10,364 bases of DNA from the IMG/VR virus record IMGVR_UViG_2657245521_000008; one strand, 5' to 3'. How positions within the stretch are numbered: the first letter of the stretch is position 1; each line of letters begins with the position of its first letter. The translations under genes were made by a program, and so were the position numbers. Of the stretch, positions 3,860-10,260 are shown one piece after another. This DNA comes from a virus (taxonomy: Duplodnaviria; Heunggongvirae; Uroviricota; Caudoviricetes). The notes under the pieces were generated by a model. The model ran no database searches. It saw only the letters and a program-made list of their open reading frames with translations, and had not been told where the DNA came from.

Positions 3860-4063
3860 ATGAACATCGACACTATCCCTACAAAAGGCTATATCAGACG
3901 CTTTCGCCTGGCTGAATTGCTGGGCGTTAGTGTATCCACCATCGACCGTAAAGTAAGAAACGGTTCACTACCACGTCCGGTAAAGCTGGGAGAAAAAATA
4001 ACTGCGTTTGATGCGGTTGAGATTCACAACTGGCTGGCAGAACGCCGCGGGAAGGTGGCCTGA
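3860..4063 (+). CDS. alpA: AlpA-family phage transcriptional regulator / excisionase-like DNA-binding protein (67 aa)
   Basis: MNIDTIPTKGYIRRFRLAELLGVSVSTIDRKVRNGSLPRPVKLGEKITAFDAVEIHNWLAERRGKVA fits the AlpA/Vis pattern of a short helix-turn-helix followed by the LP.P.K.G and W motifs. Size and position after int match CP4-57 and PICI alpA. Confidence 0.8.
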   Translation: MNIDTIPTKGYIRRFRLAELLGVSVSTIDRKVRNGSLPRPVKLGEKITAFDAVEIHNWLAERRGKVA

Positions 4064-4506: not shown

Positions 4507-5340
4507 ATGAACATCGAAAAAAGCAGATTAATTTCTGAGGCCGCCCCTCATCTGAACGCCTCTCTGAGCACAATTAACGGTAATGAATTTGCCGCAATTG
4601 TCCCGGTTATTCCTGGTCATATCGGTGGGCGTGAAACCAATATTGTTAGCGCAAAAGCGTTACACAAAGCGTTGGGCGTGGGAAAAGACTTCTCTACATG
4701 GATCACTGATCGCATCTCTGAATATGACTTCACCATTGGGCACGATTACTCAGTCCATAAAACAATTTCCCCAAATTTGGGGAAAAGCCCGAATGGCGCG
4801 GCTTACAGCAAGATTAAGCAGTCTGGCAGACCCGGCAAAGACTATCTGTTAAGTGTCGGAATGGCGAAAGAACTGGCAATGATCGAACGCAATGATCAGG
4901 GTCGCGCTATCCGCCGTTATTTCATCCAGTGCGAGGAAGAATTACAGCGTAGCGTGCCTGAAATCGCCGCCCGCTATCGTCGCCAGCTAAAAGCCCGTAT
5001 CAGTGCCGCAAACAACTTTAAGCCAATGTGCGATGCGCTGAATATGGCCCGTGCCGAGATGGGGAAAACGACGCAGCAACACCACTACACAAACGAGAGC
5101 AATATGATTTCTCGTATCGTTCTTGGTGGGCTAACTGCTAAGCAGTGGGCGCGGATAAATGGCTATTCTGGCGAACCTCGCGACCATATGAACGCAGAAC
5201 AGCTTGAGCACCTCTCATATCTCGAAAGCACCAATATCACGTTAATTGATATGGGCATGGAATATGAGCAGCGCAAAGGAGAACTCACCCGCCTGTCGCA
5301 ACGCTGGCTCGCCAAGCGTCTGGAGGCGCTCAATGTCTAA
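4507..5340 (+). CDS. Phage antirepressor-like protein with AntA/AntB-type N-terminal domain (277 aa)
   Basis: The segment AAIVPVIPGHIGGRETNIVSAKALHKALGVGKDFSTWITDRISEYDFTIGHDY followed by DYLLSVGMAKELAMIERNDQGRAIRRYFIQCEEEL matches the conserved AntA antirepressor signature as I recall it. GGAGA Shine-Dalgarno 7 nt upstream. Confidence 0.78.
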   Translation: MNIEKSRLISEAAPHLNASLSTINGNEFAAIVPVIPGHIGGRETNIVSAKALHKALGVGKDFSTWITDRISEYDFTIGHDYSVHKTISPNLGKSPNGAAYSKIKQSGRPGKDYLLSVGMAKELAMIERNDQGRAIRRYFIQCEEELQRSVPEIAARYRRQLKARISAANNFKPMCDALNMARAEMGKTTQQHHYTNESNMISRIVLGGLTAKQWARINGYSGEPRDHMNAEQLEHLSYLESTNITLIDMGMEYEQRKGELTRLSQRWLAKRLEALNV

Positions 5341-5512
5341 GCCAACAGGAACACCACAACCACAAAAACGCTACAAAGATGCCCACGGAGCACTCGTTAC
5401 TGTCGAAAGCGTGTCTCACAACCGAGTGACGTTTTATCGCGACGGGTATCAATCGCCATGCGTACAACCGCTGGCACGTTTCATGAAGGAGTTCGCGGAG
5501 GTTAACCAATGA
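5333..5512 (+). CDS. Small hypothetical protein (59 aa) translationally coupled to the antirepressor gene
   Basis: The ATG at 5333 is preceded by GGAGG (5322-5326) with a 6-nt spacer, and overlaps the upstream stop (caATGtcTAA). The track ORF 5246..5512 is the same frame, but its upstream part lies inside the antirepressor gene with no ribosome-binding site. Confidence 0.5.
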   Translation: MSKPTGTPQPQKRYKDAHGALVTVESVSHNRVTFYRDGYQSPCVQPLARFMKEFAEVNQ

Positions 5513-6576
5513 TACCCGTCCAGAAGAAGACATTTTCACTGGCTGGTATGTCGCCAAAATCCAGCAATATGACGGCAAAGTCAGGCATTAATACAGCAGA
5601 TGCAAGCAAAGTTTATCATTTGCTGGTGGTCGGAACGGATGCCTTAACCATACCAGAAATCACGGGCGATGATGTTAGCGTTGAGAAGGTCAGCGGCTGC
5701 GCCAGAGAATTTCTGGTCGTAGATGACCTGTTCTGCTCGTGTAGTGACTCCACAAAAACATTCGTCCACGCGCGTGACGTTAACGAAATGAGCGCGATGT
5801 ACTGTGCTTCTGGTTCTTCCAATAGTGAGTTTTCGGAGTCCATAAAAAAGAGCTTGCCGTTATGCGGCAACACGGTTTATGGTTATAAGGCACCTCATAA
5901 AACGGGTGCCGGGATTGGCGTCCTGGTAAATCGAATGGCGACATATGACGCGCCGAGCGTCTTTTTTTATGTCGTAGGTCTGACTCACCCATTTTTTGGG
6001 CGTTGGTGTATAATCCAGCGCCTTTGTCAATCAATGGTGGCTCAGGCAGGGGCTTCTTCGGAAGCGCCGGTATCCATTCGAGCCGGTTACGCCAACCCTG
6101 TCTGGGCTACCACCAGCGAAATTGGCGTTTCCGGTGGTAGCGTTACATGCTATCGAATGGAGGCTGCCACATGCTGGCTACTACCCCTACCCAAAAACCG
6201 CAATTTATCTGGATTATCGCCGCAGTTCGCCGCGATTGCCCGACAATTACCGCCAAAATTCATCATATTGCTGCCGAGTCTGAACGCGATGCTCGCCGTT
6301 CTCTGGTGCGCGATCACATCTGCTTTTTTGCTGGTCGTATCCGCATGGAGGTGGCACATGATTAAAACCTACGATGTGCATATGGATCCCCTCGAACGCA
6401 CAAGCCAGATCATCACACTGACAGAAGTGATTAACGACATTCTGGTGAGCAACTCTCCCTCACGAGACGAAAGACTAAAGGCGTTACTCGCGATATTGGA
6501 TCTCGCCGTTCGTGACGTTCATTTCCTGCTGGAAGGTGGACAAATGCCATGCAAAACGGGGGCAACCAATGAATAA
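5509..6576 (+). CDS. Hypothetical protein as the stop-free ORF (355 aa); integrity doubtful, possibly a fusion of an upstream gene, a non-coding control region and a separate 72-aa gene starting at 6358
   Basis: GGAGG (5497-5501) lies 7 nt before the ATG at 5509, which overlaps the upstream stop (ATGA). No stop occurs in this frame until 6574-6576. However, 5947-6170 carries terminator, promoter and hairpin features, and in 6171-6357 this frame uses rare codons (cta, tta, cga, agg, ata) while another frame looks genuinely coding. An internal ATG at 6358 has its own GGAGG. Confidence 0.4.
5947..5968 (+). terminator. Terminator-like hairpin with a 7-T tract, lying inside the 355-codon ORF
   Basis: gacgc (5947-5951) pairs with gcgtc (5957-5961) around a 5-nt loop, then TTTTTTT at 5962-5968. 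Stop codons occur in the other two forward frames right here (TGA at 5946-5948, TAG at 5975-5977). Confidence 0.3.
6009..6014 (+). promoter_or_regulatory. Perfect TATAAT -10 hexamer (no clear -35), about 160 nt upstream of the ORF at 6171; candidate promoter for the small-gene/primase operon or for a leader RNA
   Basis: TATAAT at 6009-6014 is immediately preceded by TG and sits in an otherwise GC-rich stretch, about 40 nt downstream of the terminator-like hairpin. Confidence 0.3.
6171..6365 (+). CDS. Small hypothetical protein (64 aa) in a different frame from the 355-codon ORF
   Basis: GGAGG at 6159-6163 lies 7 nt before the ATG at 6171. Codons are typical of E. coli genes (ctg, gct, acc, ccg, atc, gcc, cgc, gat, gtg). 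The stop overlaps the next start as ATGATTAA at 6358-6365. The track shows this frame as 6147..6365. Confidence 0.45.
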   Translation: MLATTPTQKPQFIWIIAAVRRDCPTITAKIHHIAAESERDARRSLVRDHICFFAGRIRMEVAHD

Positions 6577-7848: not shown

Positions 7849-10260
7849 ATGCGAAACATTGATCTTATCCGTCAGGTTATCAGTGCGTCTGAAAACAACT
7901 GGCCTCATGTGCTGGGCTGCCTGAACATAAATGTCCCTGACTCTCCGCGCCGTCATGCTCCCTGCCCTGCATGTGGGGGCAAAGATCGATTCCGGTTCGA
8001 TGACAACGGGCGCGGTAGCTTCATCTGTAATCAGTGCGGCGCTGGTGATGGGCTGGATTTAATTAAACGCGTAAATAACTGCGACACAACAGAGGCGGCG
8101 CTGCTTGCCGCTGATGTTCTGGGTATTGATTACCGGACAACGGAAACACCAGAAGCCACCAGCCAGAAACGGGAACAACTGGAAACCGAGCGCCAGCGAC
8201 GCGAACAGGAGCGCCTGAAAAGGGCGGAGAAGGACGAACAACAAAGACGGGATACGTTTTCCCGTCAGTTTGATGACATGCGCAGAAAGGCTGTAAACGG
8301 CAAATCTGATTATCTGGTTGCGAAAGGGGTAGGTGATTTTACATTCCCCGTGTTGCCCGATGGATCTCTGTTGCTGGCGCTGGTGGATAAATCCGGCGCA
8401 GTCACAGCAGCACAGACTATTACCTCACATGGTGAAAAAAGACTCCTGACAGGTTCAGCAAAGCGGGGGGCATATCACGCCATAAACGCACCAGAAACAA
8501 CACAGAGCATCTTAATCGCAGAAGGGCTGGCAACGGCATTATCTGCCCATTTAATTCGTCCAGAGGCGCTGACAGTGGCGGCGATTGATGCCGGGAACCT
8601 GTTATATGTCGCCCAGGTACTGCGGGATAAATTTCCTTCAGCACAAATCATCATTGCTGCGGATAACGACCACAGCGAAGGAAGACAAAACACGGGGAGA
8701 ATAGCAGCAGAAAAAGCAGCTTTATCTGTTTCTGGATGGGTGGCATTACCCCCGACAGGTCACAAAGCAGACTGGAATGATTACCACCAAAAACACGGCA
8801 TTAAATGCGCCACAGAAGCGTTCAATAAGTCAATGTACCAACCACAGGGTAATGGCGTGAAACAGGAGCCACAGACCATTGAGGGAAGCGATTTTAAGGT
8901 TATGGATACCGACCCACTGAAACCAAGAATAGAAAGCCGCGAGGATGGTATTTATTGGGTATCTCCGAGAGCTGACAGCCAGAGTGGAGAAATCATCAAT
9001 AACGAAAGCTGGTTATGTTCTCCGTTAAGCGTTATCGGTACTGGCAGAGACGATAAAGACCAGTATCTCATTCTTCGCTGGCTGTCGTTTGGTTCTGAAA
9101 CGCCGACAACCGCTGCCATTCCACTGGCTGATATTGGTGAACGTGAAGGATGGCGCACACTTAAAGCTGGTGGGGTAAATGTCACGACCAAAAGCAGCCT
9201 CAGAGCAATACTGGCAGACTGGCTACAACGCAGTGGCTCTCGTGAATTGTGGCGTGTTGCTCATGCCACTGGCTGGCAATGCGGAGCGTACATCATGCCT
9301 GATGGGGAAATCATCGGAACACCTGAAAATCCTGTGCTGTTCAGCGGGAGAAGCTCAGCCGCAGCCGGATATACCGTCTCAGGGAGCGCGAAAAGCTGGC
9401 GTGATAACGTGGCGCGTCTGGCCTTTGGTAACTATTCAATGATGACCGGGATCGGCGCAGCACTGGCAGCGCCATTGATTGGGCTGGTGGGCGCTGACGG
9501 GTTCGGCATTCATTTCTATGAGCAGTCGAGCGCGGGTAAGACCACCACGGCAAACGTGGCGAGCAGCTTATACGGCAACCCTGATTTACTGCGGCTGACG
9601 TGGTACGGAACCGCGCTGGGGCTGGCAAATGAGGCCGCCGCCCACAATGACGGATTAATGCCGCTTGATGAAGTTGGTCAGGGCGCTGATCCTGTCAGCG
9701 TTTCACAGTCTGCCTATGCGTTATTTAACGGTGTAGGGAAACTGCAAGGCGCTAAAGATGGTGGAAACCGGGATCTAAAACGCTGGCGTACAGTGGCAAT
9801 CAGCACCGGAGAAATGGATTTAGAAACATTTATCGCTACTTCCGGGCGAAAAACCAAAGCCGGGCAACTGGTGCGACTGCTGAATATTCCGTTGAGTAAA
9901 GCAGTACGCTTTCACGATTACCAGAACGGAAAACAGCACGCAGACGCACTGAAAGACGCTTACCAGCATCACCATGGCGCAGCCGGGCGTGAGTGGATTA
10001 AATGGCTGGCAGACCACCAGCAACAGGCTATTAAAACTGTTCGTGATTGCGAAAGCAGATGGAGAAGCCTGATCCCATCCGATTATGGTGAGCAGGTTCA
10101 CCGTGTAGCCGCGCGATTTGCCATTCTGGAGGCCGCATTGTTGTTAGGCGAGGTTGTAACAGGCTGGGATGCTCAGACATGCCGTGATGCGATACAGCAC
10201 AGCTATAACGCATGGTTGCGCGAGTTCGGCACAAGTACGTGGGAACCGTGGTCGGGTTAA
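7849..10260 (+). CDS. Primase / replication initiation protein (803 aa): N-terminal zinc-binding primase motif, Toprim domain, C-terminal NTPase/helicase-like domain (P4 alpha / PICI Pri-Rep type)
   Basis: CPACGGKDRFRFDDNGRGSFICNQCGAGDGLDL at residues 38-72 is a Cys4 primase zinc-ribbon motif. ILIAEGLATALSAH ... IIIAADNDHSEGRQNTGRIAAEKAA at residues 221-290 is Toprim-like (E ... DxD). A P-loop-like SSAGKTT lies at residues 560-566. GGGGG Shine-Dalgarno precedes the ATG. Confidence 0.9.
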   Translation: MRNIDLIRQVISASENNWPHVLGCLNINVPDSPRRHAPCPACGGKDRFRFDDNGRGSFICNQCGAGDGLDLIKRVNNCDTTEAALLAADVLGIDYRTTETPEATSQKREQLETERQRREQERLKRAEKDEQQRRDTFSRQFDDMRRKAVNGKSDYLVAKGVGDFTFPVLPDGSLLLALVDKSGAVTAAQTITSHGEKRLLTGSAKRGAYHAINAPETTQSILIAEGLATALSAHLIRPEALTVAAIDAGNLLYVAQVLRDKFPSAQIIIAADNDHSEGRQNTGRIAAEKAALSVSGWVALPPTGHKADWNDYHQKHGIKCATEAFNKSMYQPQGNGVKQEPQTIEGSDFKVMDTDPLKPRIESREDGIYWVSPRADSQSGEIINNESWLCSPLSVIGTGRDDKDQYLILRWLSFGSETPTTAAIPLADIGEREGWRTLKAGGVNVTTKSSLRAILADWLQRSGSRELWRVAHATGWQCGAYIMPDGEIIGTPENPVLFSGRSSAAAGYTVSGSAKSWRDNVARLAFGNYSMMTGIGAALAAPLIGLVGADGFGIHFYEQSSAGKTTTANVASSLYGNPDLLRLTWYGTALGLANEAAAHNDGLMPLDEVGQGADPVSVSQSAYALFNGVGKLQGAKDGGNRDLKRWRTVAISTGEMDLETFIATSGRKTKAGQLVRLLNIPLSKAVRFHDYQNGKQHADALKDAYQHHHGAAGREWIKWLADHQQQAIKTVRDCESRWRSLIPSDYGEQVHRVAARFAILEAALLLGEVVTGWDAQTCRDAIQHSYNAWLREFGTSTWEPWSG

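Follow-up and report, generated by a model that had tools for sequence, protein, structure and literature searches.

The viral record IMGVR_UViG_2657245521_000008, analyzed here over its whole length of 10,364 nt (the window), carries on its plus strand two RNA genes and the leader of a small protein gene, and this region at 5890-6170 is a known P4/P1-type antisense-RNA immunity switch of prophages and satellites, real but ordinary. The element is arranged in the order integrase, AlpA, AntA, DUF4222, isrK-C4-icd and primase-helicase (7849-10260), in agreement with the first-pass annotation, which had placed a control region ahead of the replication genes. A search of the window for tRNA genes returned none. 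Related sequence is present in 2885 of 5426 complete E. coli genomes. Two search hits (H56 and H57) show 100% identity to the window across 5880-6200. In the homologous loci scanned, isrK is followed by C4 in the same order in 20 of 20, including phage P4 (locus L141), SfV and a P1-like plasmid.

The first-pass annotation had assigned the region to the class of the P4 CI and P1 C4 RNAs and named Rfam models of the C4/CI family as a way to check this. Two such models matched above their gathering scores. RF01695 (C4) matched 6030-6117 at full length (model positions 1-87) with 79.5 bits against a gathering score of 45 (E = 9.9e-15), and RF01394 (isrK) matched 5890-5967 over model positions 1-77 with 67.1 bits against a gathering score of 50. 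The c4-a1b1 motif (RF03163) scored 17.9 bits at 5877-5929, under its gathering score of 46.7, and reached 47.9-49.6 bits in five homologous loci; the a1/b1 sequences are present and covary here despite the low score, and the isrK model covers the same stretch. The Icd-like ORF and the covariation described below likewise uphold the class assignment.

To assess compensatory base changes, we used 22 homologous loci, including those of phage P4 and of the P1-like plasmid. Such changes, which had been proposed as a check on the stems, were found both in the stems and in the pairings between RNA segments. The IsrK/seqA-type leader RNA (5890-5967) consists of two hairpins, a linker and an intrinsic terminator, and its helices are 92-96% paired with compensatory changes. 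The terminator at 5947-5968 reads gacgcgccgagcgtc followed by ttttttt, a 5-bp GC stem and seven T that correspond to isrK model positions 57-77; its stem is 96% paired, and it was also listed by a terminator scan. The hairpin and the T run had been noted from the sequence together with adjoining stops in the other two frames, which lie at 5946 and 5975/5981. This terminator ends the IsrK/seqA leader RNA and not an upstream protein gene.

Upstream of isrK lies a σ70-type promoter (5854-5883) at the position of the P4 PLE promoter, composed of a TTGCCG −35 hexamer (5854-5859), an 18-nt spacer and a TATGGT −10 hexamer (5878-5883). A simple scanner missed it because the match is only 8/12. Nevertheless, TTGnnn and TAnnnT occur with equivalent spacing and at a fixed distance before isrK in 22/22 loci, P4 included. 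The isrK-C4-icd transcript is predicted to start at approximately 5890.

The C4/CI-type antisense RNA (6030-6117) is defined by the Rfam match, by covariation and by its fold, which has a minimum free energy of −47.2 kcal/mol (z = −5.8). Its 17-bp closing stem (6035-6051/6096-6112) encloses the hairpin gcttc-ttcg-gaagc (6052-6065) and a second hairpin (6066-6070/6083-6087) that bears the b′ loop. All three helices are 100% paired among the 22 loci, with changes on both sides in 8 + 5 + 1 = 14 pairs. The UUCG hairpin thus stands as first described. Its extension to 6049-6068 with one mismatch (G/G) exists in the sequence but not in the family fold, where 6049-6051 belong to the outer stem and 6066-6068 to the second hairpin. 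The C4 sequence also shows an acceptor-like stem with ACCACC after it.

Two segments of C4 are complementary to targets on both sides of the RNA. The b′ recognition loop, tccattcga (6073-6081), is the exact reverse complement of b2, tcgaatgga (6153-6161), which overlaps the Shine-Dalgarno sequence GGAGG (6159-6163) located 7 nt before the ATG at 6171; this match, already pointed out from the sequence, is as described. The b′ loop also has an exact 8-nt complement, b1 (tcgaatgg, 5931-5938), in the isrK linker. Likewise, the a′ segment acgccaa (6089-6095), at the junction before the closing stem, is exactly complementary over 7 nt to ttggcgt both in the loop of isrK hairpin 2 (a1, 5915-5921) and downstream of C4 (a2, 6122-6128). 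The a2 target is presented by a small gaaa/tttc hairpin (6118-6131) whose stem covaries in 3/4 pairs. The predicted duplex energies are −13.8 and −11.3 kcal/mol for b′ with b2 and b1, and −10.3 and −12.7 kcal/mol for a′ with a2 and a1, respectively.

All four pairings covary among the 22 loci. In the downstream pair, b′/b2 is paired in 97.5% of cells with compensatory changes in 7/9 pairs, and a′/a2 is 95-98% paired, also with compensatory changes; the two together are 97% paired with a covariation score of 0.83, whereas shuffles gave 0.20 and sliding the partners gave no more than 0.15. In the upstream pair, a1/a′ is paired in 100% of cells and b1/b′ in 96.6%, with compensatory changes in 6/7 and 7/8 pairs, respectively, giving together 98% pairing and a score of 0.88. 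The first-pass annotation had put the expected number of 9-nt complements at less than 0.1 by a rough estimate, and the mean in 5000 mononucleotide shuffles of 5947-6170 was 0.076; two such pairs were observed (P(≥2) = 0.016). It is the covariation in the 22 homologous loci that sets the pairings well above chance. By analogy with the known systems, the C4 loop would mask the Shine-Dalgarno sequence, with a second contact at a′/a2 and duplicate upstream targets at a1/b1.

The Shine-Dalgarno sequence belongs to an icd/kil-like gene of 64 aa (6171-6365), the first gene under the switch. It matches NCBIfam NF033153 (phage_ICD_like) at 6171-6362 with 70.4 bits against a cutoff of 25, and is 42% identical to the 65-aa ORF at the kil position of P4 (E = 5e-11). 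Between the window and two of the homologous loci (L123 and L124), the RNA cassette is only about 60% identical while the flanks are 93-100% identical. A diverged cassette between near-identical flanks fits swapped immunity specificities.

As a separate observation, a local anti-Shine-Dalgarno pairing between 6127-6133 and 6158-6164 is predicted in both global folds of the region, the one with C4 folded and the one with its recognition segments paired upstream in cis. Its four core pairs are 90-100% paired among the loci; the Shine-Dalgarno sequence is invariant, hence this pairing does not covary.

Both RNA genes lie within a stop-free, eta-like frame of 355 codons (5509-6576), found in the ORF list and labeled 'ash family protein' by PGAP. 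It begins with an ATG at 5509 that overlaps the stop codon of the DUF4222 gene (5333-5512), continues through the promoter, the two RNA genes and the leader, crosses icd in the +1 frame of that gene and takes in the next small ORF. It is free of stops between 5506 and 6576, whereas the other two frames have 3 and 4 between 5890 and 6171. The frame over the RNA genes is open in 20/22 loci, while the other two contain 1-7 stops each in nearly every locus, a second open frame being found in two loci. Its translation aligns with that of the P4 eta frame over aa 116-220. The stop-free ORF is not accidental and corresponds to the P4 eta read-through frame. It is in phase with icd in 17/22 loci. In the window, as in L123 and L124, the ATG of icd lies 2 nt further from the Shine-Dalgarno sequence, which shifts the long frame to +1 relative to icd; the eta/kil nesting of P4 is therefore not exactly reproduced in the window.

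Such a frame could also be read as an ordinary protein gene, an 'ash family protein' or transcriptional regulator in which the RNA features are incidental. The 355 codons without a stop and their maintenance in 20/22 loci would fit this reading, as would a Pfam Phage_ASH match (PF10554, 105.3 bits), matches to several PHROG 'transcriptional regulator' families and the agreeing PGAP label. However, the Phage_ASH match covers only aa 124-232, that is, nt 5878-6204, and the PHROG matches are confined to aa 106-233; all protein-family matches thus fall on the translated RNA genes, and the N-terminal 123 aa are unmatched. Substitutions in the C4 segment fall about equally on the three codon positions, 13/10/13 (versus L123) and 13/9/12 (versus L124), with no third-position excess, unlike the pattern of purifying selection on a protein. 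Instead, the changes compensate RNA helices and pairings up to 170 nt apart. Moreover, the same frame crosses icd out of phase, and the historical 'ash' ORF of P4 overlies the CI RNA gene. The protein-gene reading is almost certainly wrong. A frame kept open with no third-position excess fits translation without a conserved product. The corresponding counts for the N-terminal 381 nt (11/4/12, 9/2/4 and 10/0/4) are few and non-independent.

For annotation, two RNA genes (an isrK/seqA-type leader and a C4/CI-type immunity RNA) are appropriate here together with an icd/kil-like gene, whereas the labels 'transcriptional regulator' and 355-aa 'ash family protein' are unsuitable. The Pfam Phage_ASH model and six PHROGs seem to have been anchored on translations of RNA genes. 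We discounted the minus-strand ORFs at 5780-6034, 5860-6030 and 6150-6359; on that strand, the G-U pairs of the covarying helices would be A-C mismatches.

The spacer between isrK and C4 contains the perfect TATAAT noted by the first-pass annotation at 6009-6014, one of only two on the plus strand of these 10.4 kb. This hexamer is located in the loop of a hairpin (5998-6006/6015-6023) that is predicted in both global folds. The spacer measures 62 nt in the window and 10-107 nt across the loci, and the distance from isrK to C4 equals 2 modulo 3 in 7/8 length classes. The hairpin is part of an insert of approximately 38 nt that is absent from loci with a 21-25-nt spacer.

If this TATAAT were a promoter for C4, as the first-pass annotation had read it, starting a transcript at approximately 6021, C4 synthesis would be independent of read-through at the IsrK terminator. 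The perfect hexamer lies approximately 20 nt upstream of C4, L123 has TATAAT and L125 has TATGCT in the same place, and a transcript from 6021 folds cleanly into C4. We nevertheless regard a separate C4 promoter as somewhat unlikely. There is no usable −35 element, CACCCA at 17-nt spacing matching in 2/6 positions, and the scanner made no call; the hexamer sits in the loop of a conserved hairpin, within an insert that is absent in 12/22 loci (spacer 10-25 nt); and L130 and L133 lack a −10-like hexamer at that position. In P4, furthermore, CI is processed out of the transcript of the upstream promoter (PMC10111431).

A further 9-bp complementarity noted earlier, between gctaccacc (6106-6114) and ggtggtagc (6133-6141), is likewise exact. 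The 3′ arm, 6133-6141, is complementary to the 3′ strand of the C4 closing stem, and its part 6136-6141 is also the 5′ arm of a local hairpin with 6149-6154. Since the 5′ arm of this helix is the 3′ strand of the C4 closing stem, the helix and the C4 fold are mutually exclusive. The helix is paired in 96.5% of cells, with compensatory changes in 6/9 pairs and with U-G wobbles; it is absent from the predicted minimum-free-energy structure and costs approximately 7 kcal/mol. For this question only, we used a more distant set of loci. A pattern scan of genome contigs with GGGGCNNCTTCGGNNGCGCCGG matched at least 120 loci, about half of those listed being in unrelated GC-rich genomes, and among the listed matches 56 distant loci hold C4 RNAs. 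An element like the 3′ arm follows C4 by approximately 16 nt in these 56 loci. Complementarity there is 7.30 of 9 for cognate and 6.97 of 9 for non-cognate partners; because the arm is nearly invariant in the distant set, this is positional support only and not covariation.

The 9-bp helix is conserved and covarying but has no place in the immunity model. It might represent a conserved third conformation of the leader, undescribed so far (older P1 and P4 papers aside), that couples C4 folding to icd translation, a proposal that we consider unlikely. When C4 is unfolded, for example with a1/b1 holding a′/b′ in cis, the freed 3′ strand might capture 6133-6141; this would open the local hairpin that uses the same bases (in Pseudomonas-type loci, the anti-Shine-Dalgarno hairpin) and expose the icd ribosome-binding site. 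If this is true, translation of icd would respond directly to whether the antisense RNA is folded.

Taken as a whole, the region is very probably the immunity and early-control module of a P4-like integrated element. A constitutive promoter at 5854-5883, itself inside the long frame, would start the transcript at approximately 5890, and most transcripts would end at the terminator (5947-5968) to give the IsrK/seqA leader RNA. The read-through transcripts would carry the C4/CI RNA (6030-6117), which, as in P4 and P1, would then be excised and accumulate. Its b′ loop and a′ junction would pair with a2/b2 just downstream, and icd would remain untranslated because b2, when bound by C4, overlaps the icd Shine-Dalgarno sequence. 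The untranslated RNA would be terminated ahead of the replication genes, presumably by Rho-dependent polarity as in the P1 system, and C4 would also bind the duplicate leader targets a1/b1. Transcription from an upstream (late) promoter may have another outcome: ribosomes translating 5509-6576 would pass through the terminator, C4 and the targets, and the transcript would therefore be insensitive to C4, as reported for P4 eta. From one element to another, the a′/b′ segments vary in concert with their four targets, so the cassette would set the immunity specificity. The a′/b′ sequences indicate the immunity type of the element, and the presence of the cassette identifies it as a P4-like satellite or island whose immunity is RNA-based. 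The mechanism itself contains nothing new, both RNA families being already curated in Rfam.

The same parts could work in the opposite direction, by activation as in Salmonella prophage Gifsy-1. In that case, the short IsrK (5890-5967) would be a trans-acting regulator and the C4-shaped RNA mainly its target or a by-product: the read-through transcript would be inactive while a1/b1 are paired in cis to a′/b′, and free IsrK would displace this pairing and switch on a frame from the AUG at 6034, in the 5′ strand of C4, together with the downstream genes. In support, the two folds of 5890-6185 are nearly isoenergetic (−132.0 kcal/mol with a1b1 paired in cis to a′b′ and −130.3 kcal/mol with C4 folded) and correspond to structures A and B described for the Gifsy-1 isrK-orf45 RNA (PMC4825925); the ATG at 6034, within the long frame, is invariant in the 22 loci. 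On the other hand, an icd/kil-like gene with b2 on its own Shine-Dalgarno sequence is the geometry of P1/P4 repression, and covariation is equally strong in the b2 pairing and in the upstream ones. Homology to P4 seqA/CI is pointed out in the Gifsy-1 study itself, whose authors could not discard a CI-like role for STnc1160 (PMC4825925). Activation as the main mode is thus quite improbable here, but it is compatible with repression of the P1/P4 type and the two are not mutually exclusive.

The Gifsy-1 isrK-orf45(STnc1160)-anrP locus of Salmonella shares its leader with the window, IsrK being the founding member of RF01394, which matches at 5890-5967 here. Terminator read-through, pairing in cis of the leader with the RNA that follows it and a downstream processing product of approximately 80 nt have been described for Gifsy-1 (PMC4825925), and the orf45 start is the invariant AUG in the 5′ strand of C4, which is 6034 in the window. 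The a1/a′ helix was tested there by the compensatory mutations G28A/C162U and G31A/C159U, and IsrK in trans activates rather than represses downstream translation as measured (PMC4825925). Hfq binding and trans activation by IsrK are experimental results for the Gifsy-1 copy only (PMC4825925). Gifsy-1 differs from the window in that its 45-codon ORF is coupled to an antirepressor gene, and an icd-like gene with b2 on the Shine-Dalgarno sequence is not described for it.

The immI region of P1/P7 (c4, icd and ant1/2, with a1 b1, a′ b′ and a2 b2) contains an RNA of the same family as the window. In both systems the RNA contacts its target at two sites, of which b2 lies on the ribosome-binding site of icd, and in both, heteroimmunity is accounted for by coordinated change of a′/b′ and their targets. 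In P1, RNase P reportedly processes C4 to an RNA of 77 bases, and Rho-dependent polarity is said to result when icd translation is blocked. The P1-like plasmid locus (L126) aligns with the window column for column, but it lacks an open frame over the RNA genes. The regulated output also differs, being the Ant antirepressor in P1, whose synthesis the c4 RNA represses (PMC8546580), and the replication genes of a satellite-type island in the window. The Rfam C4 model was built around P1/P7 c4 (Weinberg 2010, PMC2864571).

The order of parts in the window follows that of the P4 immunity region, namely the PLE promoter, seqA, the cI gene for the CI RNA with seqB, seqC, and the nested eta/kil genes. 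The Rfam C4 and isrK profiles detect relatives of P4 CI and seqA (PMC10111431), and the P4 locus (L141) has isrK and C4 matches of its own and the promoter in the position common to the window. In P4, CI lies inside eta, Kil is a truncated form of the same product, and eta translation prevents termination (PMC10111431). Differences are found in the recognition sequence, where a′ is attctca in P4 and acgccaa in the window and the b′ loops are also distinct; in the spacer from the leader terminator to the RNA (107 nt in P4 and 62 nt in the window); and in the long frame, which in P4 is in phase with kil but in the window is +1 relative to icd and, unlike that of P4, shares its stop with the next small ORF. 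In addition, AntA and DUF4222 genes lie upstream of the cassette in the window, where P4 has alpA directly. Both regions share a recognition sequence in two parts whose targets flank the RNA, an Icd/Kil-like first gene and a stop-free frame that begins upstream of the promoter and crosses the RNA gene, and the setting in the window is P4-like, with integrase, AlpA and then a primase-helicase downstream.

The first-pass annotation had read the region at 5947-6170 as a control RNA of the P4 CI/P1 C4 class. When the window was scanned against Rfam at curated thresholds, exactly two matches were obtained, both on the + strand: isrK (RF01394; 5890-5967, 67.1 bits for a gathering score of 50) and the C4 antisense RNA (RF01695; 6030-6117, 79.5 bits for a gathering score of 45), the latter bearing out the proposed class. 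The Rfam c4-a1b1 model stayed below threshold in the window (17.9 bits, gathering score 46.7). Relatives of P4 CI and seqA can be recognised with the C4 and isrK profiles of Rfam (PMC10111431). The ORF at 6171-6365 (icd, + strand) matches the Icd-like cell-division inhibitor family (NCBIfam NF033153, 70.4 bits) and is 42% identical to the 65-aa P4 ORF at the kil position. The locus is a member of the curated families Rfam C4, Rfam isrK and NCBIfam Icd-like.

The hairpin gacgc/gcgtc with seven T at 5947-5968, also listed by the terminator scan, is the final helix and U-run of the isrK match, in agreement with its earlier reading as a terminator. The hairpin gcttc-UUCG-gaagc at 6052-6065 is the first internal hairpin of C4, and the second bears in its loop tccattcga (6073-6081), the exact complement of tcgaatgga (6153-6161). 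The latter overlaps GGAGG (6159-6163), which lies 7 nt upstream of the icd ATG at 6171. Folded alone, C4 adopts the family structure (-47.2 kcal/mol, z = -5.8). Fewer than 0.1 such 9-nt complements had been estimated to arise by chance; 5000 shuffles of 5947-6170 gave a mean of 0.076 9-mer complement pairs, and two are observed (shuffle P of two or more = 0.016).

Profile matches identified genes for an integrase (1447-2784), AlpA (3860-4063), AntA (4507-5340), DUF4222 (5333-5512) and a primase-helicase (7849-10260). The RNA module is separated from the primase-helicase by four small ORFs and lies ahead of the replication genes, as had been proposed; its gene neighbourhood is that of a P4-type island. 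The island integrase gene adjoins a YicC-family endoribonuclease gene (478-1341), and a tRNA gene search of the window found none. The module recurs at 98.9% identity in strain MB165, in an island beside tRNA-Thr and proA; this site differs from that of the window, and thus near-identical modules reside in islands at different chromosomal sites.

Of 5426 complete E. coli genomes, 2885 contain related sequence, with some copies 100% identical over 5880-6200; phages also contain it, among them P4, SfV and Stx phages. In three RefSeq E. coli chromosomes, one of the small ORFs at the matching stretch bears the name 'nicotinic acetylcholine receptor subunit beta', evidently an annotation error. An Rfam scan of 20 loci, consisting of 19 diverse loci with identities of 67-81% or lower and the close relative L002, detected isrK followed by C4 in every one, including P4 (L141) and the P1-like plasmid (L126), and the pair occurred twice in two prophages.

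We aligned isrK, C4 and 62 nt downstream from 22 cassettes, namely the window and 21 from the scanned loci, leaving out L002. The local helices were 93% paired, compared with 39-47% when partners were slid, and the three C4 helices were 100% paired with both sides changed in 14 pairs. C4 carries two recognition segments, a′ and b′, with targets in isrK (a1, b1) and downstream (a2, b2). The b′ loop and b2 were 97.5% paired with compensatory changes in 7 of 9 pairs, and a′ (6089-6095) and a2 (6122-6128) were 95-98% paired; the covariation score for both pairings together was 0.83, against 0.20 for shuffled and at most 0.15 for slid partners. The same segments also match a1 in the loop of isrK hairpin 2 (5915-5921; 100% paired) and b1 in the isrK linker (5931-5938; 96.6% paired), with a covariation score of 0.88. 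The recognition sequences vary from locus to locus, and all partners change in concert. These pairings are established, as are the family membership and folds of the RNAs; the original observation is confirmed and its interpretation supported.

The perfect 9-bp stem gctaccacc (6106-6114)/ggtggtagc (6133-6141) noted earlier, here helix (d), likewise covaries: 96.5% of cells were paired in the 22 cassettes, 6 of 9 pairs were compensatory, and U-G pairs occurred, which argue for same-strand RNA pairing and against a DNA palindrome. The 3′ strand of the C4 closing stem serves as its 5′ arm, and its 3′ arm lies between a2 and b2; because the former arm is shared, helix (d) is incompatible with folded C4. 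By the energy model, it is less stable than the optimum by about 7 kcal/mol. Searching with a covariance model of 20 C4 sequences retrieved at least 56 further C4 RNAs from Pseudomonas, Serratia, Pectobacterium, Photobacterium and others. In most of these distant loci, a GGTGG(C/T)AGC-like element is located about 16 nt past C4, and in the sequences inspected it often shares bases with an AGCTCC:GGAGCT Shine-Dalgarno hairpin. This suggests a putative switch that would couple C4 folding to ribosome access. Older literature aside, helix (d) is absent from the published model; it is conserved and is the sole unexplained piece of the locus.

All 22 loci contain, within 60 nt upstream of isrK, a TTGnnn hexamer, a 17-18-nt spacer and TAnnnT ending 6-7 nt ahead of the first base of isrK. 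The hexamers of the window are TTGCCG (5854-5859) and TATGGT (5878-5883) on the + strand; those of P4, TTGCCT and TATAGT, are at the position of the P4 early promoter. An inverted repeat, ttgccg-ttatg-cggcaa (5844-5870), overlaps the -35 hexamer. On the minus strand, the terminator scan listed it as a terminator-like hairpin with a T-run behind it; it may serve as an operator or terminate convergent transcription. The TATAAT at 6009-6014, previously taken as a promoter element, is present as described, but it lies outside the conserved design. It could be a lineage-specific extra promoter for C4, as it is kept in L123 and L125 has TATGCT; this is unlikely, however, since the hexamer lies in a predicted hairpin loop (5998-6006/6015-6023), sequence inspection revealed no usable -35, the promoter scanner made no call, L130 and L133 have no -10-like hexamer at this position, and the insert holding it is missing in 12 of the 22 loci, where C4 starts 10-25 nt past the terminator. 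The insert, about 38 nt long, separates the isrK terminator from C4; by eye, the stem of its hairpin (8-9 bp) shows apparent compensatory changes in L123, L125, L130 and L133, and the loop of the hairpin is variable.

The region had also been described as embedded in a stop-free ORF, and indeed the mod-3 = 1 frame is open over 5506-6576, the remaining two forward frames being full of stops. PGAP names 5509-6576 an 'ash family protein'. Pfam PF10554 (Phage_ASH) covers only aa 124-232, or nt 5878-6204, which correspond to the promoter -10, isrK, spacer, C4 and leader; six PHROG 'transcriptional regulator/repressor' families match within aa 106-233 only, and protein-family searches with the N-terminal 123 aa gave zero matches. 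The historical P4 'ash' ORF spans the CI RNA gene. Within the C4 segment, substitutions fall evenly on the three codon positions (13/10/13 and 13/9/12 against the near relatives L123 and L124, respectively), indicating no conserved amino-acid sequence there. What anchors the Phage_ASH and PHROG families and the PGAP name seems to be conserved RNA genes in a kept-open frame, and these protein-family models appear to have been built on translated RNA genes.

Of the 22 loci, 17 have an open frame that begins upstream of isrK, reaches the icd stop and is in phase with the icd/kil ATG. The window, L123 and L124 have the +1 frame of icd open instead, and an open frame is absent only from the P1-like plasmid and L136. 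The remaining two frames contain 1-7 stops each in most loci, and the distance from isrK to C4 equals 2 mod 3 for 7 of 8 length classes. The kept-open frame is P4's eta. Kil is a truncated C-terminal form of Eta, and full-length Eta is translated only from the upstream late promoter, coupled to the upstream gene, its translation preventing termination (PMC10111431, summarising Forti et al. 1999). The ATG at 5509 overlaps the stop of DUF4222, the last in a closely spaced or overlapping gene chain from alpA, and an eta role for 5509-6576 is plausible. The in-phase nesting of kil within eta in P4 is, however, not reproduced in the window. The spacing from Shine-Dalgarno to ATG is 2 nt longer in the window, L123 and L124 than in the other 19 cassettes (ctgccacATGctggct versus ctgccatcATGgct; the additional nt are at 6164-6173, between GGAGGCTGC and the icd coding sequence), so that the eta-like frame crosses icd out of phase. 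It is open across all 64 icd codons, joins the next small ORF (6358-6576; own GGAGG at 6348-6352) in phase and ends at its stop. The out-of-phase long frame is a trait of this subfamily. The icd initiation region (6157-6173, atggaggctgccacATG) has nearly the same sequence as that of the next ORF (6345-6360, atggaggtggcacATG), which is without the tcga part of b2.

Between the window and L123/L124, the isrK-to-Shine-Dalgarno cassette is about 60% identical (C4 59-61%, leader 60-62%), whereas the flanks are 93-96% identical upstream and 99-100% for icd. This is the pattern expected of exchanged immunity specificities, 5890-6170 representing a sharply bounded replacement of the specificity module between otherwise near-identical islands. 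In the E. coli prophages L127 (701-889 and 1357-1545) and L131 (703-891 and 1569-1754), both cassette copies are complete, about 650-870 nt apart and each before a Rha/Ash-type gene. Within each prophage the two copies have different b′ loops, and in L127 different a′ segments as well; these prophages therefore carry tandem immunity modules.

For the leader (5890-6185), two folds of nearly equal energy are predicted, one with a1/b1 paired in cis with a′/b′ (-132.0 kcal/mol) and the other with isrK and C4 folded separately (-130.3 kcal/mol). In both, UUUCC (6128-6132; the a2-hairpin 3′ arm plus the base after it) pairs with the Shine-Dalgarno (6159-6163); pairing of the four core pairs is 90-100% among the loci, without covariation because the Shine-Dalgarno is invariant. 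The two folds match structures A and B of the Gifsy-1 isrK-orf45 RNA. In Gifsy-1, compensatory mutations were tested in the counterpart of the a1/a′ helix, IsrK activates downstream translation in trans, and IsrK and STnc1160 are homologous to P4 seqA and CI, respectively (PMC4825925). Given this activity and the matching folds, an activating role of free IsrK may coexist with C4 repression in the window element; we rank activation as a secondary mode because the regulated gene here has b2 on its own Shine-Dalgarno.

The window shares the a1 b1/a′ b′/a2 b2 sites of P1/P7, b2 likewise falling on the ribosome-binding site of icd, and the arrangement corresponds to seqA, seqB in CI and seqC of P4. 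Because the arrangement is the same, we consider the following mechanism most likely. Transcription would start at about 5890 and terminate mostly at 5968, and C4 would derive from read-through transcripts. C4 pairing with a2/b2 would then block the icd Shine-Dalgarno, so that the replication genes are not expressed, with a1/b1 as a second target. Biere et al. 1992 and Hartmann et al. 1995 reportedly found that a block of icd translation exerts Rho-dependent polarity on downstream genes and that the 5′ end of C4 is made by RNase P; we infer C4 processing, translational block and polarity here as well. Ant synthesis is repressed by P1 c4 RNA (PMC8546580), and the mode of action of the locus is probably like that of the P4 CI and P1 c4 immunity systems. 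The locus is of a kind already known, and it is common.
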